Source of the DNA: Endomicrobiia bacterium | GTDB taxonomy: Bacteria > Elusimicrobiota > Endomicrobiia > DTEH01 | NCBI GenBank assembly: GCA_039630545.1 | Contig: JBCNUU010000013.1 | Location: 1-31,617, forward strand | Length of the DNA stretch: 31,617 bases | Direction of reading: 5' to 3' | Shown: piece after piece, positions 1,583 through 31,284 of the stretch | Layout of the letters: the number at the start of each line of letters is the position of its first letter | Numbering within the stretch: the first letter of the stretch is position 1 | The notes under the pieces: generated by a model | Told to the model about the DNA's origin: nothing | Database searches by the model: none | Seen by the model: only the letters and a program-made list of their open reading frames with translations | Made by a program: the position numbers and the translations under genes

Positions 1583-2452
1583 TTAATATTCTACACCTGT
1601 AGTAATTGTAACTTCTTTAAACTCCTTTATTATCTGTCTGGTAATCTCACCGGGTTTTCCGTTGCTTATTATTCTGCCGTCTACTTTAACAACAGGGATT
1701 ACTTCAGCTGCGGTTCCTGTAAGAAAACATTCGTCTGCTGTATACACATGGTATATTGTAAATGGTTCTTCTTTTACTAATAGTTTCAATTTCGTTCTCG
1801 CTATTTCTATAACTGTATCTCTAGTTATTCCAGGTAGAACCCCTATATAAATTGGAGGTGTAATTAATATATTATCCTTTACTATAAAAATATTGTCTCC
1901 AGTGCATTCTGCAACATATCCATCTTGGTTTAACATTATTGCTTCCTCACAACCAGCTTTTATTGCTTCTATTTTGGCAAAGATATTATTTAGATAATTC
2001 AGAGATTTAATAGCAGGATTAATTGCGGAAGATAAATTTCTTCTTGTAGAAACAGTTATTACTTCAAGACCGTTTTCATAAAACTCTTTTGGATATAAAA
2101 CAATTTTATCTGCAATAATTACCAATGAAGGCTTTTTACATTTTCTTGGATCTAAACCTAAATCTCCTATACCTCTTGAGATTACAACTCTTATATAAGC
2201 ATCTGAAAGATTATTAACCTTTAATGTCTCTATTATTGCTTTCTCTATTTCTTGTTTAGTATAAGGAATATCCAGCATTATAGCTTTAGCTGAGTTAAAG
2301 AGTCTATCAATATGTTCTTTTAGTTTAAAAACTCGTCTGTTGTAGCTTCTTATTCCTTCAAAAACTCCATCACCATATAAAAACCCATGATCAAAAACAG
2401 AAATTTTTGCTTCTTCTTTTTCATAAAATACACCGTCTATATATACTTTCAT
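1583..2452 (-). CDS. ilvE: Branched-chain amino acid aminotransferase (class IV PLP)
   Basis: Motifs HGFLYGDGVFEG, AIKSLNY, ECTGDNIF, LPGITR, ADECFLTGTAAEV. Confidence 0.95.
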   Translation of the reverse strand: MKVYIDGVFYEKEEAKISVFDHGFLYGDGVFEGIRSYNRRVFKLKEHIDRLFNSAKAIMLDIPYTKQEIEKAIIETLKVNNLSDAYIRVVISRGIGDLGLDPRKCKKPSLVIIADKIVLYPKEFYENGLEVITVSTRRNLSSAINPAIKSLNYLNNIFAKIEAIKAGCEEAIMLNQDGYVAECTGDNIFIVKDNILITPPIYIGVLPGITRDTVIEIARTKLKLLVKEEPFTIYHVYTADECFLTGTAAEVIPVVKVDGRIISNGKPGEITRQIIKEFKEVTITTGVEY

Positions 2453-4410
2453 CCTTTATTATCCTCCTTAAGATATTTTAAAACATTAGGAAATAAAGAA
2501 AAGTCTGTGTGAGGTATAAAAATTGTAGAAGTGTATTCATTCATATATATCGGTAAACTTGAAAGATCTATATACGTCATTTTTTTTGCTACTTCAAACA
2601 TCCTTTTTCTTGCTTTTCTTGAAACTAAAAATAATTTAGATCCTAAAAGCGAAGTATTACCTGCAATTAAAAATTTAGTTTCATCTATATCAGGAAGTAG
2701 TCCCAAAATTTGTGCTTTTTTTATGTTTAGAAAACTACCAAATCCTCCTGACAAAAAAAATCTTTTTATATCATTGAATTTTAAATTAGTATATTTAAGT
2801 AAAGTATGCAAACCATGAAAAATAGCTCCTTTTGATCTTAAAATATTATGAATATCTGACTGAGTAATTACTATGTCTCTGTTAATACTTGTAAACTCCT
2901 TACTTTCAATTATAAACTCATATTCTCCAAAATCATTTATTCTTATTCTTTTTTTTAAATTATGATTTTCCACATTTTCAAGAAACTTCCCGGATCTATC
3001 TATTACACCTGCTTTAAATAATTCTGCAGGAATATCTATAAGTCCTGATCCACATATTCCTGTGGGTTTTGTATTGTTTATAGTTTTATATTCTACATTT
3101 CCATTTACAATTTTTATATCTTCTATAGCACCATCTATAGCTCTTACACCACAACTTATTCCTACGCCTTCAAAAGCAGGACCACATGAACACGCAGCTG
3201 AAACTAGAAATTCTTTGTTGCCAACCACAATTTCTCCATTAGTTCCTAAATCTATTAAAACACACAAATCTTCTGAAATATCTATTCCACAAGCTACAAC
3301 CCCTGCTACAATATCACCCCCTACATAGGAAGCGACTGATGGGACAGAATATACTTTAGCTTGAGGATTAATAAGTAGATTTATTTCTTTAGCCTCAATC
3401 GGAGGCAGAACAGTACTTACAGGTATATAAGGTTCTTTTCTAATATTTTCGGCTTCAATATTAAAAAAAAAGTGAATCATAGTAGTATTTCCAGAAACAA
3501 CTGCCACATATATGTCTCTTTGAAGAATTTTTGTGTTTTCTATAATATCATTTATAAGATCATTTAATGTTGATATAACTTTTTCGTGAAGTTCTTTAAG
3601 TCCTCCTTTTTTTTCAGAATAAATAATCCTTGTGATAACATCTTCACCATAAACTAACTGTTTATTAAAAGTAGTTTTGGTTATTATGTTTTCAAAATTT
3701 TTTATATCAACAAGAGACATAGCGATAGTGGTAGTGCCTATATCAATAACTAATCCATAATATGTTTGCTGATTATTTAGTATGTCAGTTATCTCCAAAA
3801 CGACCTCATCATCCAGAAATTTTTCAGCTAGTAAGACCTGTCCTTTCCAATTATTTTTTCTTAAAAACGATGGTAATTTGTACAAAACATGTATATTATC
3901 TATTACTACTTTAGACTCTCCTTTTTGGTTTTTTATCGAAGTTATTAATCTATCAGCATCTGATAAAGCATTTTCAATGCTGGGCATGGTTAACTTAAAG
4001 TCCAAAATTTCTACTAAAGGAGTTTTATCCAACAAAATTTTCTCCATAATTTTTTTAAAATTTTCTTCTTCTATTTCAGAATATATAGTTATATCTTTAA
4101 CAGCCTTATACTGTGAATCTTTTATTTGTGATTCCTCAGGTATCTCTATTATTAAACTTTCCAGTGGAAAAGTTTTACATGCAAGAACGAATTTTTCTTT
4201 CTGTTCTTCTTTACTGATAAAATAAGAAAAATCTGTCATGTAGTTGCCTTCAATAATTTTTATTTTACATTTTCCACAGATACCCTTTCCGCCACAGTTT
4301 GCATATATATTAACTCCAGCGTTAATTAAAAGCTCAAGTAAGTTGTATTTTTTTTCTCCTATAAATTCTAAATTTCTATTGAGTACTTTTATCTTTATGT
4401 CTTCTGTCAT
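2449..4410 (-). CDS. acsV: Corrinoid reductive activator (RACo/AcsV, ASKHA ATPase with N-terminal 2Fe-2S ferredoxin domain; DUF4445)
   Basis: CGGKGICGKC...LAC 2Fe-2S motif; DIGTTT, GEDVITRI, GNTTM, YVGGDI, DLGTNGE, GPAFEG, GICGSG, SKGAI; adjacent to acsC. Confidence 0.9.
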   Translation of the reverse strand: MTEDIKIKVLNRNLEFIGEKKYNLLELLINAGVNIYANCGGKGICGKCKIKIIEGNYMTDFSYFISKEEQKEKFVLACKTFPLESLIIEIPEESQIKDSQYKAVKDITIYSEIEEENFKKIMEKILLDKTPLVEILDFKLTMPSIENALSDADRLITSIKNQKGESKVVIDNIHVLYKLPSFLRKNNWKGQVLLAEKFLDDEVVLEITDILNNQQTYYGLVIDIGTTTIAMSLVDIKNFENIITKTTFNKQLVYGEDVITRIIYSEKKGGLKELHEKVISTLNDLINDIIENTKILQRDIYVAVVSGNTTMIHFFFNIEAENIRKEPYIPVSTVLPPIEAKEINLLINPQAKVYSVPSVASYVGGDIVAGVVACGIDISEDLCVLIDLGTNGEIVVGNKEFLVSAACSCGPAFEGVGISCGVRAIDGAIEDIKIVNGNVEYKTINNTKPTGICGSGLIDIPAELFKAGVIDRSGKFLENVENHNLKKRIRINDFGEYEFIIESKEFTSINRDIVITQSDIHNILRSKGAIFHGLHTLLKYTNLKFNDIKRFFLSGGFGSFLNIKKAQILGLLPDIDETKFLIAGNTSLLGSKLFLVSRKARKRMFEVAKKMTYIDLSSLPIYMNEYTSTIFIPHTDFSLFPNVLKYLKEDNKG

Positions 4411-4414
4411 AAAA

Positions 4415-5743
4415 TTACTGATATAGAATTTTTAAAAACTTAGGTATCCCTGAAGCTTCTTGGGGGCCAACTATTATTTCCCAATCAGGTAACAACTCGT
4501 TAAGTTTTCCACTCATAACAGCTACATATCCAGGAATTATTAATCTTTTACTTTTTATCTTCTCAGAAATTCTCTCCTTATTTAAAGCCTCAACTACTTT
4601 TTCTGGAGTAAATTTTTCAGCAGCCCACGCTGTAAGAACAGAAAGACCCTCAGTATCCACCACTAAAAGCCATGACGGTATTTTAGAATTAATTATTTCA
4701 GGTTCAACAGAATAATATGTTAAAGAGAAATTTGTAGTAACCAATAGTGGAGAGTCTTCTTTCGGTTTACCACCTATTTGGTAAAGCTTTGGTTCTACAG
4801 TAGTTGGTTTTTGAGGGTCGGTATATATATTTAATCTCATGGTAATAAGAGGTAAATGAATTTCCTGTTTTAAAGTGGATAGCACCACTATGCTTGCATA
4901 TTTTAATATTCCCAGTGTCCCAAATAATAAATTATCCTTGTCTGATTCTTTTTCTATAATTAACATAACAGGATAACCTAAACTTCTAAAATTCTTTTTT
5001 AATGAGAGGCGTCGAATTTGAGTTAAATATTCTAAAGTTTTTATATGGTCTACTACAGGAATATTAATAATTAACTCTTTGTATGAATATTGTTTTACTG
5101 TTGTGTCTACAATTTCTATAATTTTGTCCAAGTTTTCTGCACTGATTATTAAAGGAATGTTATACTGTTTAGCCAGAGATACATATTTTTCTAAATTTTT
5201 TATATCTTCGCAAACTCCAATTAAATGAAATTTTTTGATTTTTAAAATTTCATCAATAACATCAACATTATTACAAATAAATCCTATTACTGTATCATCT
5301 TTTACTCTACTAAGGATAAATTTTATCTTTTCTATGTTATTTTGTTCCGATTTTATTAAAAGAAGTTCTGTTTTATGTTTTTGGCCTATTCTTTCAAATT
5401 CTAAATTATAAAAATTTTTTATTTTTTCATCAATTACATCATCTTCAAAAGTATCCTTTATCAGTACACCTAAAAGACAGGGGTTATAAAATGTTTTTTC
5501 ATGTCTGAATAACACTGTTTCTCCTCCAATTTTATACTTTTCAGCTATAAGAATAGTTCTTATAGGTGGTTCTGTTGCTTCTGCTAAAATCTGTTTGGCC
5601 TGTTCTGAAACATCTGGACATTTATCCAAAGAAACTTTCCTAGCCGCTAAAGCCATAGCAAATGCTAAACAAGTAGGAAACCCACATTTTTTGCAGTTTG
5701 TCTTAGGTAAAAGTTTATATATTTCAAGCCCTGTCAAAGGCAT
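4415..5743 (-). CDS. acsC: Corrinoid iron-sulfur protein large subunit (acetyl-CoA decarbonylase/synthase gamma)
   Basis: N-terminus LTGLEIYKLLPKTNCKKCGFPTCLAFA...CP; GGETVLFRHEK; NIYTDPQKP; TTNFSLTY; GLSVLTAWAA cap helix; IIPG; VGP.EAS. Confidence 0.95.
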   Translation of the reverse strand: MPLTGLEIYKLLPKTNCKKCGFPTCLAFAMALAARKVSLDKCPDVSEQAKQILAEATEPPIRTILIAEKYKIGGETVLFRHEKTFYNPCLLGVLIKDTFEDDVIDEKIKNFYNLEFERIGQKHKTELLLIKSEQNNIEKIKFILSRVKDDTVIGFICNNVDVIDEILKIKKFHLIGVCEDIKNLEKYVSLAKQYNIPLIISAENLDKIIEIVDTTVKQYSYKELIINIPVVDHIKTLEYLTQIRRLSLKKNFRSLGYPVMLIIEKESDKDNLLFGTLGILKYASIVVLSTLKQEIHLPLITMRLNIYTDPQKPTTVEPKLYQIGGKPKEDSPLLVTTNFSLTYYSVEPEIINSKIPSWLLVVDTEGLSVLTAWAAEKFTPEKVVEALNKERISEKIKSKRLIIPGYVAVMSGKLNELLPDWEIIVGPQEASGIPKFLKILYQ

Positions 5744-5749
5744 AACAGG

Positions 5750-6382
5750 TTAACCTCTGGATTTTTTAGGTTGAAGAAATATTTCAAGCTCTTTAATTGA
5801 AAAAGGTGAAATTTTAAATTCTGTAGTATATGAATTATATTCTGGATGTTCTATTTTCAGTTTGAAATTACCTCCTTCTTTAAAGAAACTACTAAATTTA
5901 TATTCAAATTCACCCTTAACATTTGTATAAAAAATATCTACTATAAGGTTAGTATCTTTATGTATTAAAGTTAATCTAGCATCTGAAACACCTGAGGATT
6001 TATTGAACAAAGAAACTACCTTTCCTTTAATTTGAGTAGAAAACGGAAAATTTATTTCGTTTTCTTTTTTTTCTAAAATTTTTGTTCTCTTTTCTTTTAT
6101 AAAATTTATACTAAAACCTAAAACTGTAAATGAAAAATTAAAAATAGAAAGGATAAATATCAAAGTAGTAATTACTTTTGTTTTGAATATTAAATTTTTT
6201 TTATACAATTTTTTATACAAGAAAATTTTTTGTTTTATTAAATTTTCTAAAATTATTACTATTACTCCTATGGCTATGGTAAAAATTAAAAATAAAAAGT
6301 TTTTATAAAAATAAGGAATTAAATAAGCATTAACTAAAACTAAAATTATTAAAAGAATTATTATTAGACTAAAAAATTTCAC
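5750..6382 (-). CDS. Membrane protein with ~3 N-terminal TM helices and a C-terminal carboxypeptidase-regulatory-like (prealbumin) domain
   Basis: Hydrophobic N-terminal segments; C-terminal IKGKVV...GVSDARLTL...TNVKGEF...YKLKIEHPEY-like pattern. Confidence 0.6.
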   Translation of the reverse strand: MKFFSLIIILLIILVLVNAYLIPYFYKNFLFLIFTIAIGVIVIILENLIKQKIFLYKKLYKKNLIFKTKVITTLIFILSIFNFSFTVLGFSINFIKEKRTKILEKKENEINFPFSTQIKGKVVSLFNKSSGVSDARLTLIHKDTNLIVDIFYTNVKGEFEYKFSSFFKEGGNFKLKIEHPEYNSYTTEFKISPFSIKELEIFLQPKKSRG

Positions 6383-6439
6383 TTTCTTAAGTTAAAAGAT
6401 ATACAAAATTCAATTATATAAAATCAACATAAATTTTAT

Positions 6440-8269
6440 CTAAAGCTTAAAATCAAACTGAAAACTAAAACTCCAATCAGATCTTTTTTCAAAATAATAA
6501 CTATTTGCAAACTTACTCCATAAAGAAAATTTGTCAAAATTATAACAAACAACTACTGAAACTATTTCTGATACTTCAGCAGGATAGGTCTTTAAAAAAT
6601 AAACATCTTTCCATATTTGTTCAAAATTACTAAATAACATCTTCCCATGCAGGGTTGGCAGATTATAGTATAAAGCAAATACAAAATTTTTTTTCTTATA
6701 TGAAAAATCTAAAGAAAAGATTTCTATAAAATTACTTTTGTTATATTGAAGCAAATTCTCATTATTTTGGATATACTTAAACTTAAAAGAAAAGTCTTCA
6801 AATAATTTATATTGTAACTGGAAAAAATTGTTAGCGTTTGAAAATTTTGTCTGAATATTTCCAGTTACATTAAAAATCTCGTATTTATATGAAGAGATAT
6901 ATTTTTCTTCTATCGTATTGTAGCTTCTAAACTCAAAAGAGATATTTCTGAATATATATTGAAGCTTCACATAAGCATTTTGAAACCAGCAAGGATGTCT
7001 GGGTAGTTCACAGCTAAAATATCCACTCCACATACTTTTTAAAATTTCACATATAGAAACCGATGCCTCCATATTTAGGTTTTTGAAATTAAAACTATTT
7101 CCTATAAGAAAACCCCACTGGTTATTAGGATATTTGTAAACTCTTAAAGGAACTCCACAAGGAGAGTAAAATGTTGGTTCTAAATATGTAGTTAGAAGAT
7201 AAAATTTATAATTTCTAAAAGGTAAAACAAAACCTGAGTTTATTGCATTTCCTTGCGAGAGTAAATTTTTATTATAAGAAAAATAGTTAAAACTTTTTCC
7301 CATCTCTAAAAAAAATAAGAGTTTATTTAACACCACTTCACCATAAAAACTTCCACAAAATAACCTATCACCTCTATATACATATTCCCATTTATCAGAA
7401 TATTTATTTTCTAAAAGATATCCGGAAGTTTCTGATTTATCTGGGTCAAAAATTTTATTATATAGCGCATAATAACCAGCTAAACCAATTTTTAGTTTTT
7501 CATTAGAAAATAAAACTCCACCGCCCAGAATTGTCTCTCCGGTGAAATTTAAGTAAGAATCCTTAAAAAATTGTTCACTGTATTCCACATAGCTGTTTCT
7601 CTCATACAAAAGGTCGGCGTTTGAAATAAAATAATCCGTAGCTTGTATTATTAAGTTTTTTTGAGAAAAAAATAAAAAATAATTTAGGTTTTTAATTTTA
7701 TCTTCAAAAACAACTCCATAAAAGTTTGCATTGTCAGAGCTGGTTAGGTCTTCTTCTATTTCAAATTTTTGGGGTTTTAAAAATGACACAAATTCAGAAA
7801 TATAAGCATATTTGCTAAATACCATACCATATCCAAAATTTATTCTATAATTACCCAAAATAACTCTATTTAGAGACAAAAAGTTTTCTTTTTTAATAAA
7901 CCATTTTCTTAAAAAATATTTAATTGTATCTTCTTTAATCACCTCTTCTTTTCTGTGCAGGAACATATATCCGAAAGATAAATTATTATAGAAAAGAGAT
8001 AATTTTTGGTAAAAATATAAACTCTCTAAGTCATTTAAGTCAGAATCGTCATCACACATAAATCTAAATCTGAAAAAACCTTTAACTTCATGAGAAACTT
8101 TTTCTTCATATAAGTCATGAAAGTAAAAATTCCAAGGTGTTGTTGGTTCTTTTAAGTTTTCTATTTCTACATTAGACCACAAAAGTGTCTGTGAAAAAAA
8201 CACTAAAAATTTTAGCAGTAAATATAAAATTTTATAATAAAATATAAATCTACTCTTCTTTGACTTCAT
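6440..8269 (-). CDS. Putative large outer-membrane beta-barrel, resembling the barrel part of Bacteroidota HhH/ComEA-associated proteins
   Basis: Signal-peptide-like N-terminus, aromatic-rich alternating strands, C-terminal FSFQFDFKL, and a LGNYRINFGYGMVF...SSDNANFYG motif. Confidence 0.55.
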   Translation of the reverse strand: MKSKKSRFIFYYKILYLLLKFLVFFSQTLLWSNVEIENLKEPTTPWNFYFHDLYEEKVSHEVKGFFRFRFMCDDDSDLNDLESLYFYQKLSLFYNNLSFGYMFLHRKEEVIKEDTIKYFLRKWFIKKENFLSLNRVILGNYRINFGYGMVFSKYAYISEFVSFLKPQKFEIEEDLTSSDNANFYGVVFEDKIKNLNYFLFFSQKNLIIQATDYFISNADLLYERNSYVEYSEQFFKDSYLNFTGETILGGGVLFSNEKLKIGLAGYYALYNKIFDPDKSETSGYLLENKYSDKWEYVYRGDRLFCGSFYGEVVLNKLLFFLEMGKSFNYFSYNKNLLSQGNAINSGFVLPFRNYKFYLLTTYLEPTFYSPCGVPLRVYKYPNNQWGFLIGNSFNFKNLNMEASVSICEILKSMWSGYFSCELPRHPCWFQNAYVKLQYIFRNISFEFRSYNTIEEKYISSYKYEIFNVTGNIQTKFSNANNFFQLQYKLFEDFSFKFKYIQNNENLLQYNKSNFIEIFSLDFSYKKKNFVFALYYNLPTLHGKMLFSNFEQIWKDVYFLKTYPAEVSEIVSVVVCYNFDKFSLWSKFANSYYFEKRSDWSFSFQFDFKL

Positions 8270-9365
8270 CTTTTTGTTCTACAAAAAGAAATTTTTCAAT
8301 TTCTCTTAGCTTTTCTTCGGTTATTCCTGGTATGTAAATCAACTCATATATTGAATTAAACTTTCCATATTTCTGTCTGTATTCTATTATTCTTTTAGCT
8401 ATTTTATTCCCTATACCAGGAACTTTTTTCAGTTCTTCTTCAGTTGCTGTGTTTAGATCTATAAGATGTTTTTTAAAATTTCTTTTTATTTTTATAAAAC
8501 TTGCTCCGAAAGAAAAAAGATGTTGATTTCCAAGATACGGAGTATAAACAAAAGAGTAATCAAATGTGAGATCTATACCTGAATAACAAACTAAAAAACC
8601 AACTCCACTGCTTAACTTTGGAAGTTTATGTGAATTAGCAGTCTCTACACCAAAACGAATAAACATATCATTTTGTTTATAAAAAGACAAACTTATTTCC
8701 TGTGCAATTTTAAAAAATAAAAAATCATTTTTAGGTTTAACTACATCCAAATATGAAGTCAATATCTTGAAAATTTTAAACTTATTGCTAAAAATTAATT
8801 GTTTATCTAAATCTTCATTAGAATTTAAAATAAACATGTTTTTAATAATAAACCCACTATTTAAATAAGACAATACTTCACAAAAAACACCTATATCAGT
8901 TGTAGAATAAAATTTATAACCATAATTTTTTGTATAAGTATTCAAAAATTTAGGATTTACTCCGAAAAATATTTTATCTTTAAAAGAAAACCACAATCCT
9001 GAATAGAAAAAATTTTCATTATATAATTCATGCATTAAATGGTTGTAAACAAAAGAAAATTTTACAAATGGAGTATTAACTTTAAAACATAAACTGTTAC
9101 TTTTTAATTCTGGAATTTCAAACAAGTTTGTTTTAGATAAATAAATATTAAAAAGATAAGAATCAAAAACAAAAGGATTAAAATAAGCAAACCCTGAAAC
9201 TTCAACAACAGAGGCACTGTTAGCCAGAATTCTTTTTTCTTCAAAAATACAATATGAAAAATTTAAGAAAATATAAAAAAATAAAAAAAATCGAAACTTA
9301 CTTTCTAAAAACAACAACCACATCTTTTGACACATATCTGTTAGCATTTTGAGGATTATATGCAT
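8250..9365 (-). CDS. PorV/PorQ-like beta-barrel fused to a C-terminal ComEA-type helix-hairpin-helix DNA-binding domain (true start probably ATG at 9323)
   Basis: C-terminal IDLNTATEEELKKVPGIGNKIAKRIIEYRQKYGKFNSIYELIYIPGITEEKLREI is a clear ComEA HhH. The N-terminal part has YFNP and DYSFVYTPYLGNQHLFSFG, which resemble PorV-family ends. Confidence 0.75.
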   Translation of the reverse strand: MHIILKMLTDMCQKMWLLFLESKFRFFLFFYIFLNFSYCIFEEKRILANSASVVEVSGFAYFNPFVFDSYLFNIYLSKTNLFEIPELKSNSLCFKVNTPFVKFSFVYNHLMHELYNENFFYSGLWFSFKDKIFFGVNPKFLNTYTKNYGYKFYSTTDIGVFCEVLSYLNSGFIIKNMFILNSNEDLDKQLIFSNKFKIFKILTSYLDVVKPKNDFLFFKIAQEISLSFYKQNDMFIRFGVETANSHKLPKLSSGVGFLVCYSGIDLTFDYSFVYTPYLGNQHLFSFGASFIKIKRNFKKHLIDLNTATEEELKKVPGIGNKIAKRIIEYRQKYGKFNSIYELIYIPGITEEKLREIEKFLFVEQKDEVKEE

Positions 9366-11268
9366 CCATATAAACTAAATATATACCACTTTTGACATAA
9401 TTTCCAAACATATCTTTACCATCCCATGTTATGCTTCCATTTGTTATATTTCTATAAGTTGTATAATCACCATTATGGAGTTTGTCTTTTTCTAAAAGTT
9501 TTATTATCTCATAACCTGCCAGATCATACACTATAATACTTTTTTCTGCTTTTTCATCTGGAATATTAAAGTTAATTTTCACAAAATTATTGTTTTTATC
9601 TTCCGGACTAAATGGATTTGTAGCCTTATCAATCTCCAATATTTTATGCGTAAAAGATATGATCTTTTTGTAACCATACCCTTTTGTTTGATTTTTAGAA
9701 AAAAACCAGTCCGAGATGGAATTTGTGTCATTAGGAAGACCTTGTTGATTTCTTACTCTTTCTATGCTACATTTATTATATTTTTCATGCAAAGACCAAT
9801 CTACTAATGAATTCTGGATTTCTCTTTCATCAACAACATTCTCAAACTGTGGACCCTCTTTCCACATTTTACTGTTTTTGAATTTACTGTAAGCTAAAAG
9901 AGCATTTTTTGAAATACTACCGTCTCTATTAGACCATCCAACAGCATCTATAAAATTCCCATATTGATCTACTATGTAAAGAAAACCCTCTGTGTTATAT
10001 AGATTTACATTTGAGGAAGAGTGTAGTATAACTAAATTATCTTTTTCCTCATCTATATCAACTGAGTTAAGATTTACTATTATAAATTCTCCAGCGTAAT
10101 AAAGCCTCTCTGGTAATTTTTTAATTTTATACTCCGGATATCCACTCAAAATTTCCCAACCTCCGTATCTACCATTCTCTAAAACAAAAATCTCTATCCA
10201 ATCTTTACCATCTGGTTCATTTATAGCAACTTCAGTAAGCAAAAGTGGTGGTTCTTTTATTTTAAAATTTTTACTTTTTAGATACAAAAATTCTTTATAA
10301 AACCTCTCGCAAATGCGTTTTGATTCTATAACCATTAAATTCTCATAATTACCTTCTGGCATCAAACCAGAATAAGTCAAATTAGCTGATCCACAAATCA
10401 CAAAAGGATCTTGTTGTTGAATATTTAAGATACAAAATTTATTATGCATTACTCCTTCCCCATATACAGTCAAATTTTTATCAAACTCTACATTTATTTC
10501 TGTGTTTCTCAGTGCCTGATAAGAATAAAAATTTTCTTCCTCATCATCTAAAACACCTTCAATTACAACCATCTGATTTTTCATTTTTTTAAATATTTCA
10601 ACAAATTCAGAAAGTGTAAAAAATGTATAGGCAAAATATATACTTGAAACTTTTGGAATTTCCAAATGTATATCGTAAAGCAAATCAAGTACTTTATCCT
10701 TAAGAGGTGGATTACTTTGGAATGGATTAAAATATACCGTAATTTTGGTGTTGTCTGGTAAAGACACTTTTTTGCCATTAAAATCCTCTAAAGAAATATT
10801 TTCACCCCAGATATACAGGAATGCTTTTTCATAGATCTCTGCAAGCTCTTTTGAAAAAATTTCAACTGCAAAGTTATCTTGCTTATATGTAGCTGCTACT
10901 GTAAAATTATAAGATCCACTCCAAACTTTTGAACTTTTTAAAATTATAAATTTATTGTGCATTATTTTACCTGATGAAATTTTTTTGCGTTCAAAATTAC
11001 TTTTAAAAATGTCCAGGGATGTATTTTCATCAAAAATTCCATATACTTTTACTCCTCTTCTTACAGCTTCATCTATTGAAGAAGCTATAGTTGAGTGATC
11101 AATTTGATAAGCACAGATATAAATTGTATCTCCTAAATTTGAAGAATCAACAAATTCTTTTAAAGCAATATCAATTTGTTTTTCTCCTTCTCTAGAGGGA
11201 GAAAAGTATAAATTTATATAATTGGAATACACTTCTACTGAAAGAAAAAAAAGAAAAAATAAAAACAT
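9298..11268 (-). CDS. Secreted phospholipase D-family (Nuc-like) nuclease with lamin-tail domain and T9SS/FlgD-like C-terminal domain
   Basis: Signal peptide; two HxK...GSxN motifs (MHNKFIILK..WSGSYNFT and MHNKFCILN..CGSANLT); LTD (LLTEV..DWIEI..IDAVGW..SIER); CTD (NPFSP..IVYDLAG..WDGKD..G..VKSGIYLV..VVV). Confidence 0.8.
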   Translation of the reverse strand: MFLFFLFFLSVEVYSNYINLYFSPSREGEKQIDIALKEFVDSSNLGDTIYICAYQIDHSTIASSIDEAVRRGVKVYGIFDENTSLDIFKSNFERKKISSGKIMHNKFIILKSSKVWSGSYNFTVAATYKQDNFAVEIFSKELAEIYEKAFLYIWGENISLEDFNGKKVSLPDNTKITVYFNPFQSNPPLKDKVLDLLYDIHLEIPKVSSIYFAYTFFTLSEFVEIFKKMKNQMVVIEGVLDDEEENFYSYQALRNTEINVEFDKNLTVYGEGVMHNKFCILNIQQQDPFVICGSANLTYSGLMPEGNYENLMVIESKRICERFYKEFLYLKSKNFKIKEPPLLLTEVAINEPDGKDWIEIFVLENGRYGGWEILSGYPEYKIKKLPERLYYAGEFIIVNLNSVDIDEEKDNLVILHSSSNVNLYNTEGFLYIVDQYGNFIDAVGWSNRDGSISKNALLAYSKFKNSKMWKEGPQFENVVDEREIQNSLVDWSLHEKYNKCSIERVRNQQGLPNDTNSISDWFFSKNQTKGYGYKKIISFTHKILEIDKATNPFSPEDKNNNFVKINFNIPDEKAEKSIIVYDLAGYEIIKLLEKDKLHNGDYTTYRNITNGSITWDGKDMFGNYVKSGIYLVYMDAYNPQNANRYVSKDVVVVFRK

Positions 11269-11291
11269 TTAAAATTCCTTTCTTTTTAAAA

Positions 11292-14200
11292 TTACTTAAC
11301 TACAACGATATAACCATATTTTCTGATATTTTCGAAAGTATATATGCTATAAATATAAACTCCTGATTCTAAAAAATTACCATTTTTATCTTTCATAGAC
11401 CAGATTATTATTGATGAATTATTATTTTCTTTACTAAAAATTTTTTTTCCTCTTGTATCAAAAATTTCCAGTTTTTTTGCATTTTCAAAAATTATATCAG
11501 GATTATATGGATTCACATAATAATTTATGTTTTCAAATTTATAACCACTTAGAACTCTATACCATCCAGTATCCGGAAATCTTAGAGTATTTATACCATC
11601 AGAGATTTCAAGGTAGTACTCAAATCCTGAATTTCTGTGAGAATTATCAAGTTCAAAAATAAGATAACCTTCAAATTCATTACTGTTAAATTTTTTAGTT
11701 TCTATCAAAATTTCTTTTTCATTATTAGAATTTATTGCTCTAAATTTTCCTTTTATATAAACAATCTGTCCTTGCTTGTCTCCTAAATTAACTTTATCAT
11801 CTTCTAGTTTTATTTCTAACTTTAATAAATTTTTTAAAATATCCTCTGGTGTAAAATTCTGTAAAAAAACTATTCTTGGAGAAAGTAAATCTATTGGAAC
11901 TTTTATTACTTCAGAAGGTTCACTTTCAAAATTTTGTTTATCTAACTTACAGACATAGTAGTAATATTCTTTAACCGGTAAAATCTCGTAATCTTCATAA
12001 AATGTTTTTTCAGAAAATCCTGTTAAGTAAAAATTTAAACTGTCAGTAGACCGATAGATGTTATAACCCATTACTTCTTCTTGAAAATCATCTTCCCAGT
12101 AGATATATATTTTGTTCTTTGAATAAGAAAATTTTAAATTATAAACCGAATTAAAAAATGGCATAGCACAGAATACCTTAAAGTATGTACTCACTAACAC
12201 ATCTTTATCAGAAAATCCTCCGTCTTGACTTAAAACAGCAAAATAATAGGTGGTATTGTTTTCCAAATTATAAATTATAACCTCATTTAATGGGTAACTA
12301 ACAGATGAAACAAAATTAGCATCATATATTGTTTTAAAATTAACTGTTGAAATAAAAACAAGATATTTAACTACATCATAACTTTCAGGATGTTCCCATG
12401 TTATTTTAATTTTTCTGTTTAAATTAGTTATATTTAGCTTTTCTACCGGAGGAGGAGGCAAATCTTGAAGATACACAAAGTTAGAGGTATTTATATTTAA
12501 TTCTTTAGATTTTATCCATACTCTCCAGCTGTTGTTTATATCTTTAAATATTACTGCAAAATAATAAGTAACCGATGGTTCTAAATTTTCCACATACCAT
12601 ATGATATTTCCAGAATGAGTTGTAAATTCAAGATTAAAACTATCATTTTCATTAAAACTTATAAAATCGTAGGTTGAATATTTCACTCTATATTCTAATT
12701 GATCTTTTAAACTGTCAACTGTCCATGAAAGTTTTACCTGACCTTCTTTCTGTGTAGAATCTACCTTTAAGCTAGTAATTCCATATATGTAAAAATTTGA
12801 ATTTCTTGGATCTCTGAAGGAAACAGTAAAATCATTATAGTTGTTATCAGTGTCAACATAAAAACCATTTCTGTCTTTTTTCCTTATTACGCTGTTATTA
12901 TTAGGTTCGGAACCACAGCTTACGGATGTAAGTTTCCCTTCTGCTAACTCATTAGATGTGCCTCCATCTTTTTCATATATTACTTTGTCAATTTCTTTTC
13001 CTGATTTATCAAGTATTCTTAAACCTCTTGGCTTATCTTTTTCTCCATCAGCTAAATTAAGATAACTTTTATGATATAAATCAGCTTGAGTAGTTTTAAA
13101 ATATTCCGATGAAGAAGATATAAGATAAAAAGAAAATGGCTTAATTTTTGTTCCCTCTGAAATTATTATTTTACTTACCCATGAATTTCCATCCCAGTAT
13201 TCCAACTTAAAACCGCTTATGTCTATCTCTTTATCCAACCTGTTCCACAGTTCCACAAATTCATCATAAGCAGAATACATACCCCTTGTAGCAAATTGCG
13301 AAATTATTGGCGAAACAATTTTTAATGTTCTGGTTGAAACAACACTGCTAAAATCTGCTGGGATGTTATCTTTGTTAAAAGATCTTATTTTTATCCAATA
13401 GGTAGTATCTGACAATAGATTTTTAATCAAAATTTTGTTCATAACCGTATATGTTGAAAAAGAAGAATAAAAATTATCTGTGGAAATTAAAATTTCATAT
13501 TTTGTGTAATCTGGGTTACCATTGGGATCAAAATAAATTGATAAAGCATCGTATGAAACATCTTCTATTCTTATATCTCTAACTGGATTTGTTAAAGTAC
13601 AAACAGAAACAGTTTTTGATTTTATTCCTTCAGAAAAATTATATGCGACAATATATCTTTCATAAATTGTATTTATATCTAAATTTGTCTCTATGTAGAA
13701 AGTTAAAGAAGGTAAAACCTCTCCAATAAGTTTTTTAGTTTTTGCACAATAAATCTTAAAATTTTCTACTTCCTGATTTTTATTCCAAAACCATTTTATA
13801 GAACAGCTACTTATTGCTTCTCCAAAAAATTCTGGAGGAGAAGGCGGCGTATAAACATATATATCACAAAAGCTATTGTAGTTTATTTTGTTGTCTTTAT
13901 TAAGAGAATAAATCCTATAATAATACCTACTGTTATGAAGAACTTCTTTATGAATGTAGAAAGTTGTATGCGCTTCTAAGACGCATAGTGTAGAAAATTC
14001 ATTACTATATGTATCAGTGGAATACAATAAAAGATACTTTTCTGCATAGGAAGCATCCCAGCTTAACTTTATTAAAATTTTCTCATTCTCCTGCAGACAT
14101 TCGGCTTTAATAGATCTGGGAGCCAAAGAATAAGTACACACTTGATAAGGTTTACTCCAAAAAGAATTTTCTTTAGTTTTTATTTCTATAAATCTTGTAT

Positions 14201-15314
14201 AGATTGTATTTGGAGATAAACCTGTCTCATGCCACGAAACTATCCCACCTTTCTCATAAAGTGGACCTAAATTAAACGACAATCTTGAAGTTATATCTGT
14301 GGAAGACGAAATATAAATTTCATCTTCTATCAAAGAGTTGTCCTTTATTGTCCATCTTATATGTCCTGTTGAAACTTCAATACTCCCATCAAGCCACTCA
14401 GGAAGGTTTACAGGGAAGTACAAAACAGCTAAATTTGAACATAAAGAAAAATTATCTGAATTATCTTTTGTCCATATACAGAAATAATAAGTCGTATTTT
14501 CTTTTGGTATTTCATTAAACTCATAAATTTGTTTCTGTAAAGCAGCCACAGCATATGTTGAAATTATAACATTTGCATTATGTGTTGAGGATATCATCTG
14601 GTAGGTTTCTATGAAAGATGTTGTGTACTTTATAATATATTCGCTGTTAAATAAAAGTTCTCCAGTATAAAAATCATTTCCAGGTGAAGTCCAGTTTAAA
14701 AAGATCCTGTTGTCTTTTATAAAAGCAATTAAATCAGAAACAAAACCAGGGGGTGTTGAATCTTTAATAAAATATGCATCATCAAAGAATACTTCAAAGT
14801 TAGCATATGAAGTTAAATTTTTAACAACCAGATGAACTTTCAGTTTCGTTATTCCTGACGGTATTGTGGTGGAGGCTGATAATTGTTGCCAGTAAAGATT
14901 ATTTGAAAAAGTAGCTGTAGACATGTAAGATCTTAACTGCCAATTTTCGTTCCAGCTAAGGTTTGTAGATTTTAAAGCAATACCTGCAGGAATTTCTAAC
15001 TGATTGTATTTAAAAACTTTAACACCATAATTATATGTGTAAAATGGTTTTACTTCTACATCCTGATATATAAAAAAATTTCTACCTGACGAAGTTACAT
15101 TATATGAAGATATCTTTAATGAAAAAGAACCTGTCGAAAATTTTTCAGTTGAAGTGCATACATAAAAACTCCAACCTGGAATTTTCCAACTTACAGGGAC
15201 AACTCCAGATGCATTATCTTCTTCAAAGCTGGGATTTTTAATGAGAGAAAAAGAATAAGAAACACATATCAAAAATAAAAAAATAAGACCTCTATAATTA
15301 AAATTGACATGCAT
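11292..15314 (-). CDS. Large secreted surface protein: CBM4/9-like domain, multiple FN3 repeats, lamin-tail domain, T9SS/FlgD-like CTD
   Basis: Signal peptide; NPSFEE...VFFDD (CBM-like); repeated L.W...Y.I...L...TTY.F.V FN3 patterns; IISQF..DEFVELWN..IDISGFKL..DTDNN..DF (LTD); IFDTRG..W.MKDKNG..LESGVYIY..IVVVK (CTD). Confidence 0.8.
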   Translation of the reverse strand: MHVNFNYRGLIFLFLICVSYSFSLIKNPSFEEDNASGVVPVSWKIPGWSFYVCTSTEKFSTGSFSLKISSYNVTSSGRNFFIYQDVEVKPFYTYNYGVKVFKYNQLEIPAGIALKSTNLSWNENWQLRSYMSTATFSNNLYWQQLSASTTIPSGITKLKVHLVVKNLTSYANFEVFFDDAYFIKDSTPPGFVSDLIAFIKDNRIFLNWTSPGNDFYTGELLFNSEYIIKYTTSFIETYQMISSTHNANVIISTYAVAALQKQIYEFNEIPKENTTYYFCIWTKDNSDNFSLCSNLAVLYFPVNLPEWLDGSIEVSTGHIRWTIKDNSLIEDEIYISSSTDITSRLSFNLGPLYEKGGIVSWHETGLSPNTIYTRFIEIKTKENSFWSKPYQVCTYSLAPRSIKAECLQENEKILIKLSWDASYAEKYLLLYSTDTYSNEFSTLCVLEAHTTFYIHKEVLHNSRYYYRIYSLNKDNKINYNSFCDIYVYTPPSPPEFFGEAISSCSIKWFWNKNQEVENFKIYCAKTKKLIGEVLPSLTFYIETNLDINTIYERYIVAYNFSEGIKSKTVSVCTLTNPVRDIRIEDVSYDALSIYFDPNGNPDYTKYEILISTDNFYSSFSTYTVMNKILIKNLLSDTTYWIKIRSFNKDNIPADFSSVVSTRTLKIVSPIISQFATRGMYSAYDEFVELWNRLDKEIDISGFKLEYWDGNSWVSKIIISEGTKIKPFSFYLISSSSEYFKTTQADLYHKSYLNLADGEKDKPRGLRILDKSGKEIDKVIYEKDGGTSNELAEGKLTSVSCGSEPNNNSVIRKKDRNGFYVDTDNNYNDFTVSFRDPRNSNFYIYGITSLKVDSTQKEGQVKLSWTVDSLKDQLEYRVKYSTYDFISFNENDSFNLEFTTHSGNIIWYVENLEPSVTYYFAVIFKDINNSWRVWIKSKELNINTSNFVYLQDLPPPPVEKLNITNLNRKIKITWEHPESYDVVKYLVFISTVNFKTIYDANFVSSVSYPLNEVIIYNLENNTTYYFAVLSQDGGFSDKDVLVSTYFKVFCAMPFFNSVYNLKFSYSKNKIYIYWEDDFQEEVMGYNIYRSTDSLNFYLTGFSEKTFYEDYEILPVKEYYYYVCKLDKQNFESEPSEVIKVPIDLLSPRIVFLQNFTPEDILKNLLKLEIKLEDDKVNLGDKQGQIVYIKGKFRAINSNNEKEILIETKKFNSNEFEGYLIFELDNSHRNSGFEYYLEISDGINTLRFPDTGWYRVLSGYKFENINYYVNPYNPDIIFENAKKLEIFDTRGKKIFSKENNNSSIIIWSMKDKNGNFLESGVYIYSIYTFENIRKYGYIVVVK

Positions 15315-15392
15315 AGTTTTTATTTTGATTTTAATAAAGAAATTTTAATTAAAGCTATCCACAGATATAAATAAGGAAAGAACAAATAATAA

Positions 15393-15469
15393 AAAGGTCA
15401 GGGGACAAACTACAACTTCACCTTTCTAAAGCCTTCCCGGCTTATGGGTTGGGTTGTCCCCTGACCTTT
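15393..15469 (-). promoter_or_regulatory. Structured leader / attenuator-like element upstream of the 1340-aa gene
   Basis: Perfect 16-bp inverted repeat (15393-15408 / 15454-15469) around a 45-nt loop that contains an inner AAGCC-GGGAA-GGCTT hairpin; followed by a T-rich tract on the - strand. Confidence 0.6.
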
Positions 15470-15534
15470 AAATCCTACCTGTGTTTTTTTCATATTATGA
15501 AATACACAAAAAATATAAAAATGTCAACTAAAAA

Positions 15535-15936: not shown

Positions 15937-17411
15937 AAATTTTAAAAATTTTACATTTTTCTAACAACCTAATGAGATTTACAGCAACTCCACTTTAAGG
16001 AACAAAATAAAATTTCTAAAATAAAAACGTTATTAATCTAAGAAAAAGATTTTTCTATTCATTAATTGAACAAATAAAAAAATCCTTTCTTATAATATTG
16101 TTTTATCTAAAATTATTAAACAATAAAAAATTATATTGCAACTTTCAATAATAAATTTACATTAAAAATACAGATATCCAACAAAATTAAAAGATACTTT
16201 CTGTTATTTAAAATTTCTATATCAAACAAAATATCATCCAATTGGGCATAGCAATTGTAGGTGGCAGTTTTAATGATGAAAAAAACAAAAGATGTTCTGC
16301 TAAATACCAATCAAATAAAATTCTAGAAATCCAAATTCAACCAATAAAATCTCTAATAAAAAGAAAAAATTGTGACATTTTATCTTTAATTTTAAAAATC
16401 TTAAAAAACAAACACATTTTTGAAAAAACAAAAGAAATTCTGCTTAATATAGACGATAGCTTCTGATGAAAGATTTCTTTTTAGCTTTTTTATTTGAGAA
16501 TATAGACATTAAAAATTTGTCTATTTCAAGTAACCAGATATAAAAATATAGAGTTCTTTTGCCAGTTCTGGCTAAGTGATATCAAACTGGAAAAGAATTG
16601 AAATGTTTAAAATTAAAACCTACTACAATAAATTGCTTTGATGTCGTATGATAATACCAAAATACATTCCAGAATTGAAATGAATTTTACACTCAAAAAA
16701 CAAAAGGGTTATTAAAACAAAATTATAAGATTATAAAAAATAAAAAGTTGTTAAGTAAACATTAAATAGTTTAGAAAAGACTATAAAAAATGACGAGCTT
16801 AAAACATTAATTTATAGTTTTAATAAGATGATACAGAAACTTATTAACAAAAAAAGAAATGAATAAAAGAATTTTGATATTTTTAATGTTTATTAATTTA
16901 CAGCATCAATTATTATTCAAGAATATACAAAAATAGTGTTTATTTCTAAAGAAGAATGTCATTATATAGTCACAAAATAAAGATTTTTACCTTCTAAATA
17001 ACATCAACAAAAAGTTATAATAGAAGCTTTTTACAGATAAAACCGAAATTACAAACAAAGATTTATAGATGCCCCGAATGTCCAAGTACCATCTGTTATT
17101 GAAAAAATACTCATCAAAAAGAAGAATATGAGTATCCTGTTATAGATGCATTTTTGGGCTGACACATAACCGTATGCAAAATTTGGAAAAAAACCTTTCT
17201 CTATAGAAGGTGAAAGAGAAAAAACTACTAAAGGAGACAGGATCAAAATCTTTCTATAGGGAGTTCTCTAGGAAACAAACAATACTAATGTTGTAAAAGA
17301 CAGTTCTTACATTACCTAAAATTTTTGCTTTACTTATTACAAAAATGCTTTATTTAAAACAATTAAAACTATTCTATGTCGGATTCAAGTGTACAAAAGA
17401 TAATAAATAAA

Positions 17412-17446
17412 GACACTTAAAAGAGGACTAACAATCCTCTTGTGTC
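17412..17446 (-). terminator. Probable intrinsic terminator of the glutamate-synthase-family gene
   Basis: - strand GACACAAGAGGA-TTGTTAG-TCCTCTT(TTAA)GTGTC, then a T-rich tract; ~18 nt after the stop codon. Confidence 0.6.
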
Positions 17447-17463
17447 AAAACTTCACAAAAAAC

Positions 17464-26498: not shown

Positions 26499-27020
26499 TC
26501 ATTTTCTTAACAAAACAAAGTAAGCATCCAAAAGTTTGGTGTAATAAATATGATCTTTATAAAATCTGTTAAGCAGTTTATAAAAGTTTTCGTTGTGTTT
26601 TTTTTCTAATAGATGACAAACCTCATGACACACAACATATTTTAATAATTCTTTAGGTAAAAATTTTAAATTTTTGTTAAAGACAAGTACATTGTTTTTT
26701 GTGCAACTTGCCCAGCTTTTTCTCATTTTTCTTAAAACTATTGATTTGTAACTTATATTTAATTTTTTAGAAAATTCTTCTAAATAAGTTTTAATATCTT
26801 CTATGAAATTTTCGTTAACCACAACTCTTAAGTTCCTGCTTATTTTTTCAACTTCATTTATATATTTGTATTTCTCTTCTAAAACTGCTCTGTACTTGTT
26901 TATAATCACATCAGCTGGCACATTATACCTCAAAGGCAATATAACTCTTGTCTCAAAATTTTTAATTTCAATTCTTGGATATTTAACATTTCTTCTAAAA
27001 ATCTTGGTCTTTATATTCAT
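26499..27020 (-). CDS. YgjP/DUF45 (M48-like) zinc metallopeptidase, associated with type I R-M
   Basis: MRKSWASC...YVVCHEVCHLLEKKHNENFY (HExxH); overlaps the hsdR stop. Confidence 0.88.
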   Translation of the reverse strand: MNIKTKIFRRNVKYPRIEIKNFETRVILPLRYNVPADVIINKYRAVLEEKYKYINEVEKISRNLRVVVNENFIEDIKTYLEEFSKKLNISYKSIVLRKMRKSWASCTKNNVLVFNKNLKFLPKELLKYVVCHEVCHLLEKKHNENFYKLLNRFYKDHIYYTKLLDAYFVLLRK

Positions 27021-30019: not shown

Positions 30020-30033
30020 AGTAATAAAACCTT

Positions 30034-31284
30034 TTATCCTAAAAATATCATAAGTGGAACTAAAAATATATTATCTTTAATTTTAAGTAGCTGTGTGCCT
30101 TTATATACTACTAAACCGAAAGGAACTTCTTTAGAAAAATCTTTAAAAAAATTTATCATACCAACAACTTCTCTGTAGTCAACTTTTTCTGACCATTTTA
30201 CTTCTACAGGTATTAGTCTACCATCAACTTCAACAACAAGGTCAACCTCAGCACCCGCAGAAGTTCTAAAGTAAAAAAGCTTCGCCTGTGGCAGATAACA
30301 AGAAACTAAACTCTTAACTTCAACAATAATTTTATTTTCAACTAAAAACGGCATTCTTCCTAACCGTTCAGCTTCTAATAAACTATTTACACCCTGTAGA
30401 TACAAAGCCACTCCTGTGTCATTCCATATTAATTTAGGGGACTTAATTAATCTTTTACCTATATTTCTAAAGTATGGTTTTAACAAAAACACCTGAAATG
30501 TAGCTAAAAGTAAATCAAAAAATTGAGTTGAAGTAGTATAAGGAAGGCCTGAATCTTTTGCTAACTCTGCTTGATTTAATATATGACAACACCTGAATGC
30601 TGCCAAAGATATAAATCTTTGAAAATCATAAAGTTTTCTTATTTTTGTTAAACTCCACACATCACGCTCTAAGTAAGTTCTTACATAACCTTTAAACCAC
30701 TCCTGCCTTGCAACATCGTCATTCTCAAACCATGCTGGAGGATACCCACCTTTCAGTATAATATCTTCTACTGAAATTTTTTTATTTTTAACTGAATTTA
30801 AAAAATCCCAGCACTCCTTTGCACTTTTGCAAGAAAAAATTTCAATGATGTTTGGCTTTCTGGTTTGCTTTGAACATATTTCAAAAATTGTAAAAGGCAT
30901 CAGTTCAACAAAAACAATTCTTCCTGCAAGTGTTTCAGAAATTTTAGGAAGTGTTGTTATATTAGCTGAACCAGTAATAAGAAACTGACCTGGTATTCTT
31001 TTTTTATCTACAATCTGCTTTATAGCAGACAAAACTGAAGGACATTTCTGGACTTCATCTATGGTTATGTATTTGTTTTGAGTTAAAAAAGAAACAGGAT
31101 TTTTCTCAGCTAACATAGCAACCGCTGGATCATCAAAACTGAAAAATGCTCTATCTTCTTTTATAATATCACGCACAAGCGTTGTTTTACCAACCTGCCT
31201 TGCTCCTAACACAGCCACTACAGGAAATTTTTTTAAATACCTTTTTACAACATCTGTTTGGATTCTATTTATTATTTTTTTCAC
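30034..31284 (-). CDS. AAA_14 ATPase with DUF4143 and C-terminal PD-(D/E)xK-like domain
   Basis: GARQVGKTT, IDEVQK, ITGSA, ETLAGR, GGYP, Y.ERD, KSPKL..DTG, YFRT..G.EVDLV...PVEVK. Confidence 0.93.
   Translation of the reverse strand: MKKIINRIQTDVVKRYLKKFPVVAVLGARQVGKTTLVRDIIKEDRAFFSFDDPAVAMLAEKNPVSFLTQNKYITIDEVQKCPSVLSAIKQIVDKKRIPGQFLITGSANITTLPKISETLAGRIVFVELMPFTIFEICSKQTRKPNIIEIFSCKSAKECWDFLNSVKNKKISVEDIILKGGYPPAWFENDDVARQEWFKGYVRTYLERDVWSLTKIRKLYDFQRFISLAAFRCCHILNQAELAKDSGLPYTTSTQFFDLLLATFQVFLLKPYFRNIGKRLIKSPKLIWNDTGVALYLQGVNSLLEAERLGRMPFLVENKIIVEVKSLVSCYLPQAKLFYFRTSAGAEVDLVVEVDGRLIPVEVKWSEKVDYREVVGMINFFKDFSKEVPFGLVVYKGTQLLKIKDNIFLVPLMIFLG

Follow-up and report, generated by a model that had tools for sequence, protein, structure and literature searches.

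Does a small cluster of genes in an Endomicrobiia bacterium encode a route by which DNA crosses the outer membrane? The genes in question, here termed g1 to g5, lie on contig JBCNUU010000013.1 of assembly GCA_039630545.1, of which positions 1 to 31,617 constitute the window analysed here. An earlier note on this DNA had proposed that the five genes form a dedicated module for the capture of extracellular DNA. We find that they are not a conserved unit. What is conserved is a large predicted outer-membrane barrel (g4), usually accompanied by a PorV-like barrel which in this genome carries a ComEA-type helix-hairpin-helix (HhH) module (g3). Our reading, to which we assign a probability of roughly one half, is that the locus encodes a gate by which DNA passes the outer membrane and is handed on to ComEC.

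The host genome belongs to the Elusimicrobiota (1.6 Mb, 95% complete) and the nearest named relatives are Endomicrobia/Elusimicrobia records. It was compared with sets of 301 Elusimicrobiota and 201 Bacteroidota genomes. Genomes are labelled G (G000 being the host), loci L and contigs C; signal peptides were assessed by eye.

Two predicted barrels, one with a ComEA-type tail

The g3 gene (8250..9365, minus strand, as for all five genes) encodes a protein of 371 amino acids with a predicted 14-strand PorV/FadL-fold barrel and a helical tail (pLDDT 87); its true start is probably near 9323, judging from the mature N-termini of relatives. The top fold matches were PorV and BAM-complex chains, the best being PorV 6h3i_F (Z 26.1, rmsd 2.5, 251 residues aligned). 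The tail, encoded at about 8286-8471, was matched both by profile and by fold, aligning with ComEA 8dss over 65 residues (Z 12.4, rmsd 1.1, 40% identity) and retaining the GIG hairpin of the (HhH)2 fold. The PorV-like barrel with a ComEA domain that had been proposed is thus borne out, at scores that fall short of family thresholds: g3 reached 48.4 bits against a TIGR00426 cut-off of 53.1 and was matched by neither NF033709 nor PF19572, its relatives matching NF033709 at E 1e-9 to 1e-13, again below the cut-off. In even-stranded outer-membrane barrels, the standard topology places the domains flanking both termini in the periplasm. Because the HhH module comes after the last strand of such a barrel, it should be periplasmic, and by this topology it would not capture DNA outside the cell as had been suggested. 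A degenerate HhH is likewise found at the C-terminus of further PorV-like proteins from these loci (L063 131-1582; L066 11797-13347).

The g4 gene (6440..8269) encodes a protein of 609 amino acids from a mostly single-copy, uncharacterised family. Its predicted structure (pLDDT 90) is a complete barrel, as had been anticipated, with 26 strand elements; two of these are short, alternate weakly and may be loop, and the strand count is therefore given as 24-26. No match to g4 was found in Pfam or NCBIfam, cluster look-ups for the family returned only the name 'hypothetical protein', and literature searches, with subscription papers outside their scope, yielded no study of it. Fold matches were to generic large barrels (best Z 15.7, rmsd 4.6, 365 residues aligned; TM at most 0.44, identity 6-10%), which point to no specific family and are no proof of a new fold. 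Conserved arginine and lysine residues of the family sit on the polar side of the barrel strands, and the predicted pore is wide and lined with basic residues. Many of its relatives carry a degenerate HhH at the N-terminus, periplasmic by the same standard topology, which the host copy lacks.

Multimer modelling, which the earlier note had advocated for the two barrels together, lends weak support to a g3-g4 complex. The prediction scored 0.39 against 0.00 for the best control, with contacts agreeing to at least 94% and a partner pLDDT of at least 78; on this scale the mark was reached, at 0.60 or below, by only 18 of 157 solved pairs and by both of the mismatches that passed (2 of 215). Likeness to the solved two-barrel complexes SprA-PorV or BAM could drive the score.

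Conservation of the barrel and its neighbours

A barrel-only profile gave 39 Elusimicrobiota matches, two of which (G154 and G262) were weak and partial and were dropped, leaving the family in 37 of 301 genomes; the four largest Elusimicrobiota families have no barrel apart from those dropped matches. In Bacteroidota the family is present in 174 of 201 genomes, mostly as a single copy.

Gene neighbourhoods were tallied at a single locus from each of 33 Elusimicrobiota genomes, contig ends truncating some of these loci; barrel-positive G065, G073 and G105 were excluded on account of contig breaks. A PorV-like gene lies immediately upstream of the barrel at 26 loci, a gene with a C-terminal secretion domain (CTD) of the g2 type at 24 and an LTD at 21. 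An HhH is attached to the barrel at 19 and to the g3 counterpart at 16. An FN3 protein is found at eight loci, a PLD at five and g5 at one. Of the 30 Bacteroidota loci with the highest scores, 26 have a PorV-like gene ahead of the barrel and 29 a detectable HhH; at 20 wider Bacteroidota loci, the profiles of this analysis revealed no LTD, CTD or PLD neighbour.

On these tallies, the core consists of the barrel and, in most cases, a PorV-like partner, to which an upstream LTD-CTD cargo is added in Elusimicrobiota. The nuclease, the FN3 protein (g1) and the prealbumin-like gene (g5) are accessory. The domains described in the earlier note are largely as stated and the genes do recur together in other genomes; the idea of a dedicated five-gene capture module does not survive, as the conserved unit is smaller than five genes. 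All five are real ORFs on the minus strand (1340, 656, 371, 609 and 210 amino acids) and are as tightly packed or overlapping as had been noted, with successive gaps of +23, -68, -20 and +57 nucleotides. Such packing alone cannot bound a five-gene unit, because the same dense run extends beyond g5 into acsC (6 nucleotides away), acsV, ilvE and nadA.

Genomic links to possible DNA import

The genomic context points to DNA import. The HhH of g3 is the only strong ComEA-type match in the host genome (E 2.5e-23, the next being 1e-6, in a six-frame scan of the 95% complete assembly). ComEA, ComEC, secretins and SprA were compared across 72 hand-picked Elusimicrobiota genomes, 36 with and 36 without the barrel. 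The TIGR00426 cut-off was passed in 17 of them, every one barrel-positive. Fourteen of the matches reside on PorV-HhH proteins; the remaining three are stand-alone, in genomes whose g3 lacks an HhH, and two of these adjoin comEC. Co-occurrence counts of this kind are taken across kin, are not independent and are consequently overstated.

A second full-length ComEC was found in 15 of the 301 Elusimicrobiota genomes, spanning six families: in 13 of the 37 with the barrel and in two of the 264 others. Those two are incomplete genus-mates of a barrel-positive genome, and one of them, G025, possesses the same gene run, broken off by the end of its contig at the place expected for the barrel. In four genomes (G010, G016, G031 and G059) the gene lies within the co-oriented run of the barrel. 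The protein has DUF4131 and Competence domains with a long C-terminus, and its gene is often followed by those for a PD-(D/E)XK nuclease, a UvrD-like protein and a metallo-beta-lactamase. In Bacteroidota, genome G480 has a PorV-like gene, the barrel gene and comEC back to back, comEC beginning 3 nucleotides past the barrel gene. We observed in addition that the second ComEC is 950-1140 amino acids long (L129 10555-13434; L134 3946-7302), that its family f1 version has an insertion which by eye resembles a thermonuclease fold but has no Pfam match, and that in G028 (L164 2671-4119) an HhH module is fused to a ComEC-like C-terminal region.

SpoVG is normally a cytoplasmic nucleic-acid binder. 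A tandem, exported SpoVG is encoded near the barrel at 11 of the 33 loci, and in family f30, in which both the HhH and the PorV-like partner are absent, an exported SpoVG-like gene directly precedes the barrel at all four loci (called with an in-house profile; one scanned copy had no Pfam match). Tandem SpoVG with a signal peptide (PF04026) occurs, for example, at L047 9088-9726 and G000 C1:80569-81183; the exported copy of the host genome sits away from the locus. Genes for a pilin and its peptidase lie downstream of the barrel at five of the 33 loci, and PilB at one.

As for the rest of the machinery, the host genome encodes both ComEC and DprA, the presence of which the earlier note had wished to see checked, along with pilMNOPQ including the secretin, a pilin, a prepilin peptidase, three PilB-like and three PilT-like ATPases. 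With a secretin and a full type IV pilus set present, secretin-free uptake, as had been entertained, is rejected for the host organism, in which DNA uptake need not dispense with a secretin. ComEC is present in 70 of the 72 genomes and a secretin in 69, whether or not the barrel is there, and such near-universal presence is uninformative as a discriminator.

Evidence against the proposed gate

That near-universal occurrence is one of several observations that weigh against an outer-membrane DNA gate. Nineteen of the 36 barrel-positive genomes have no ComEA above the cut-off, the host genome lacks the second ComEC, which is gone from its syntenic place, and HhH, SpoVG and PLD are all absent at seven of the 33 loci. 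Among the scanned Bacteroidota loci, most with flanks of 1.5 kb, comEC adjoined the barrel in only one.

The HhH modules themselves are altered. The lysine most needed by ComEA for DNA binding, K164 in B. subtilis and K63 in V. cholerae (PMC9747964, PMC3879209; these and the other papers cited are drawn on in excerpt), is absent from g3, which has isoleucine there and lysine one residue before, and this counts against the module as a DNA binder of the kind first supposed. Among 22 distinct first HhH modules borne by PorV-like proteins at these loci, none has lysine or arginine at that position and 17 retain the GhG hairpin, which is lost from all barrel-fused modules (0 of 21 in Elusimicrobiota, 0 of 50 in Bacteroidota). 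The loss of lysine in g3 is mitigated by the ComEA of P. gingivalis, PGN_0421, which also lacks it and is required for transformation according to excerpts of PMC11532111. PGN_0421 stands alone, is no longer than 265 amino acids and is ruled out as an orthologue of the g4 barrel; since ComEA is there a separate small protein, Bacteroidota need ComEA besides the barrel. Moreover, a small Riemerella screen, covering 3000 mutants, points to another barrel of the outer membrane, to judge by its description (PMC8459023).

Lastly, the host copy of the barrel looks eroded relative to its relatives: g4 retains six of the 12 basic columns that the family conserves, the mean being 10.2.

The secretion context and a possible envelope role

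A first alternative, the strongest of three but one we consider unlikely, is that the g4-g3 pair is an accessory of the envelope or of secretion, in the manner of SprA-PorV or of the Bacteroidota BAM with a FadL-type partner, docking or handling surface cargo. The HhH modules would then be degenerate interaction domains and the DNA-related neighbours incidental. The fold matches of g3 to PorV and BAM-complex chains favour such a role, as do the lost ComEA residues, the PorV-like gene that precedes the barrel at most of the top Bacteroidota loci and the presence of peptidases among the downstream cargos of relatives.

The host genome does appear to possess a reduced T9SS-like (type IX secretion) system comprising a SprA-like translocon, PorV-like shuttles and CTD proteins. 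The SprA-like gene encodes 1733 amino acids (L044 4847-10048; G000 C12:74846-80047) and matches TIGR04189 at E 1e-22, with 79 bits against a cut-off of 200. The PF14349 profile yielded no SprA match in the genome but missed every control too, and, used as a query against PDB sequences, it gave no match. Of the components that the earlier note had listed for a genome search, a SprA-like gene was recovered, below the cut-off, and GldK/PorK was not found in this 95% complete genome. There are 17 PorV-like proteins and about 26-29 CTD proteins, and 11 of the 17 PorV-like genes come directly after a CTD gene, making g2-g3 one case of a genome-wide pattern, which likewise favours an envelope or secretion role. 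In Flavobacterium, cognate shuttle genes follow their cargo genes (excerpts of PMC12618676), and T9SS cargo binds the outer loops of its carrier (excerpts of PMC10994853). Because the CTD-then-PorV order matches that of cognate shuttles, docking of g2 on g3 is a reasonable inference by analogy.

The distribution of the barrel nevertheless speaks against an envelope role. Relatives of the SprA-like protein occur in 70 of the 72 Elusimicrobiota genomes regardless of the barrel, and so do not discriminate. Among the 201 Bacteroidota, 135 have both barrel and SprA, 39 the barrel only, 27 SprA only and none neither; the barrel is thus kept in 39 of 39 SprA-negative genomes, and no PorV-like gene accompanies it at any of the eight SprA-negative loci read. 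The barrel is not tied to SprA, and its recurrent links to ComEC, ComEA, SpoVG and pilins also weigh against this alternative.

The cargo proteins and DNA as a possible food

The g2 gene (9298..11268) encodes 656 amino acids comprising a tandem Nuc-like PLD, an LTD-like domain and a CTD. The PLDc_2 match has E 3e-30, and two HxK...GSxN motifs, at H104 and H275, are both retained in five of five relatives. The sole solved sequence relative of the PLD is the Nuc endonuclease (PDB 1byr, E 1e-4), and the top NCBIfam matches are NucT models, far below their cut-offs. These similarities favour action on DNA, as the earlier note had assumed, and make g2 a likely surface nuclease. Its CTD is of the subtype that usually precedes g3. 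In L002 and L005, PLD and LTD-CTD are encoded as separate genes.

The g1 gene (11292..15314) encodes an exported surface protein of 1340 amino acids with a weakly CBM-like N-terminus (CBM_4_9, E 0.008), FN3 repeats (fn3 above cut-off), an LTD (below cut-off, E 8.5e-7) and a T9SS-like CTD. Relatives carry a PorV-like partner gene for g1, which is missing from the host genome. The T9SS/FlgD-like CTDs claimed for both cargos hold with some qualification, that of g1 being slightly under its cut-offs (TIGR04183 21.5 against 23 bits; CHU_C 24.5 against 27) and that of g2 matching FlgD_ig at E 0.001. Likewise, the LTD claimed for g2 has indirect support, in that profiles of the g1 LTD and of g2 residues 338-535 match the same domains in relatives.

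A surface nuclease raises a second alternative, less likely than the first: environmental DNA is food, which g2 digests and the barrel admits as short oligonucleotides to be salvaged, transformation playing no part. The two intact motifs of a Nuc-like PLD fused to cargo, the basic pore lining and the want of a second ComEC in the host genome all suit this proposal, and in haloarchaea LTDs accompany nucleases of extracellular DNA metabolism (excerpts of PMC5118699). Set against it, the PLD is found at so few loci, the links of the barrel are to competence genes, and no nucleoside-salvage partner was noted in the conserved core, in which purine-salvage-like genes were not systematically annotated.

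The host copy and a proposed route

The least probable alternative, that the module is decaying in the host genome, with g3 merely anchoring ComEA for ordinary pilus-and-secretin uptake and g4 a drifting remnant, draws on the divergence of g4, which is faster than that of the other four genes (g4 shares 42% identity with the orthologue in the sister genome, where g1, g2 and g5 share 57-62% and acsC 77%), on the loss of its HhH and half of its conserved basic columns, and on the disappearance of the second ComEC, the PorV-like partner of g1 and the link to pilA-pilD, but g4 is intact in both host and sister genomes and still models as a complete barrel, and barrels without an HhH are common in other families.

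Returning to the DNA gate, from the folds and gene links described above we infer the binding, cutting and transport of DNA as follows. The g1 and g2 proteins, given their CTDs and the SprA-like gene on C12, would leave the cytoplasm by way of Sec and pass the outer membrane by the SprA-like translocon, and g2 would then dock on g3 through its CTD in the manner of T9SS cargo on a cognate shuttle. At the cell surface g2, to judge by its motifs, may nick or shorten environmental DNA, perhaps delivered by the type IV pilus, and the DNA ends would pass through the wide, basic-lined g4 pore. Beside g4, g3 would hold the ComEA-type module in the periplasm, where its fold suggests that it could bind DNA and ratchet it inward as ComEA does. 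ComEC and DprA, encoded elsewhere in the genome, would take over from there.

In excerpts of PMC11532111, the crossing of the outer membrane by DNA in Bacteroidota without a known pilus route is stated to be unresolved. A single-copy barrel found in most Bacteroidota genomes, with an attached HhH and recurrent ComEC links, offers a one-gene, testable candidate for this step. The Elusimicrobiota loci provide its strongest context, with ComEA on a PorV-fold barrel, a nuclease tagged with a CTD and a second ComEC confined to lineages that bear the barrel. Export by a SprA-like translocon and shuttles, GldK being undetected, is indicated there too, outside the Bacteroidota. A bolder proposal, which we put forward tentatively and hold to be doubtful, is that g4 is the first of a new class of channels that import DNA across the outer membrane without a secretin, present in the majority of Bacteroidota and in deep lineages of the Elusimicrobiota; in the latter, the operon would add a ComEA ratchet tethered to a barrel, a nuclease displayed by the T9SS and a second, dedicated ComEC.

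Other features of the window

The g5 gene (5750..6382) encodes a membrane-anchored, carboxypeptidase-regulatory (prealbumin-like) protein of 210 amino acids; the carboxypeptidase-regulatory assignment leads at below 0.9, with no Pfam match. It was found only in the host genome and one sister genome, is ruled out as a module member by its presence at a single locus and is probably a passenger.

Upstream of g1, a structured leader element (15386..15473, minus strand) has a long stem with compensatory changes, an inner hairpin and a U-tract. It is a single-copy element whose conservation extends to four genomes of the genus; searched at the DNA level, 41 relatives gave matches only in G000 and G183, and no Rfam family matched. 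From these features it is a candidate attenuator or small RNA.

The acsC gene (corrinoid Fe-S protein large subunit) and a gene for an AcsV-like activator run on directly from g5 (2449-5743). A stretch of about 1.5 kb (15937-17463) is AT-rich with no ORF above 90 amino acids and is possibly decayed DNA. At 26499-31284, the type I restriction subunit HsdR is flanked by genes for a YgjP-like metallopeptidase and an AAA/DUF4143 protein. A promoter and terminator scan gave chance-level results, and the small SRP RNA was not found in the 95% complete host genome.

Comparison with known systems

The g4 barrel is similar in size to the ushers FimD/PapC and to TonB-dependent transporters, from which it differs in having no recognised plug domain and no family assignment; fold matches specific to ushers, TonB-dependent transporters or LptD were not obtained, only generic ones. 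The PLD domains of g2 have the HxK...GSxN motifs of the Nuc/NucT endonucleases, but there are two per chain, fused to an LTD and a CTD. With the T9SS protein PorV and cognate PorP/SprF-type shuttles (PDB 6h3i, 8gl6), g3 has in common the 14-strand FadL-type fold, a gene placed directly after that of a CTD cargo and a SprA-like gene in the genome; it departs from them in its ComEA tail and in pairing with another large barrel. With ComEA (Pfam HHH_3, TIGR00426; PDB 8dss, 8dfk) it has in common the (HhH)2 fold, a predicted periplasmic location and co-occurrence with ComEC. Unlike ComEA, which is soluble or anchored in the inner membrane, the g3 module is fused to an outer-membrane barrel, lacks the K164/K63 lysine and scores under the TIGR00426 cut-off.

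Competence in Riemerella and Porphyromonas, as described in excerpts of PMC8459023 and PMC11532111, likewise needs HhH proteins and ComEC for uptake. The essential barrel of Riemerella, RA0C_RS04915, is a carboxypeptidase-regulatory-domain protein, set apart from g4 by its description only (PMC8459023, in excerpt). We do not file the locus as ComEA or as PorV, because g3 falls short of what defines either; in its working, it resembles competence uptake.

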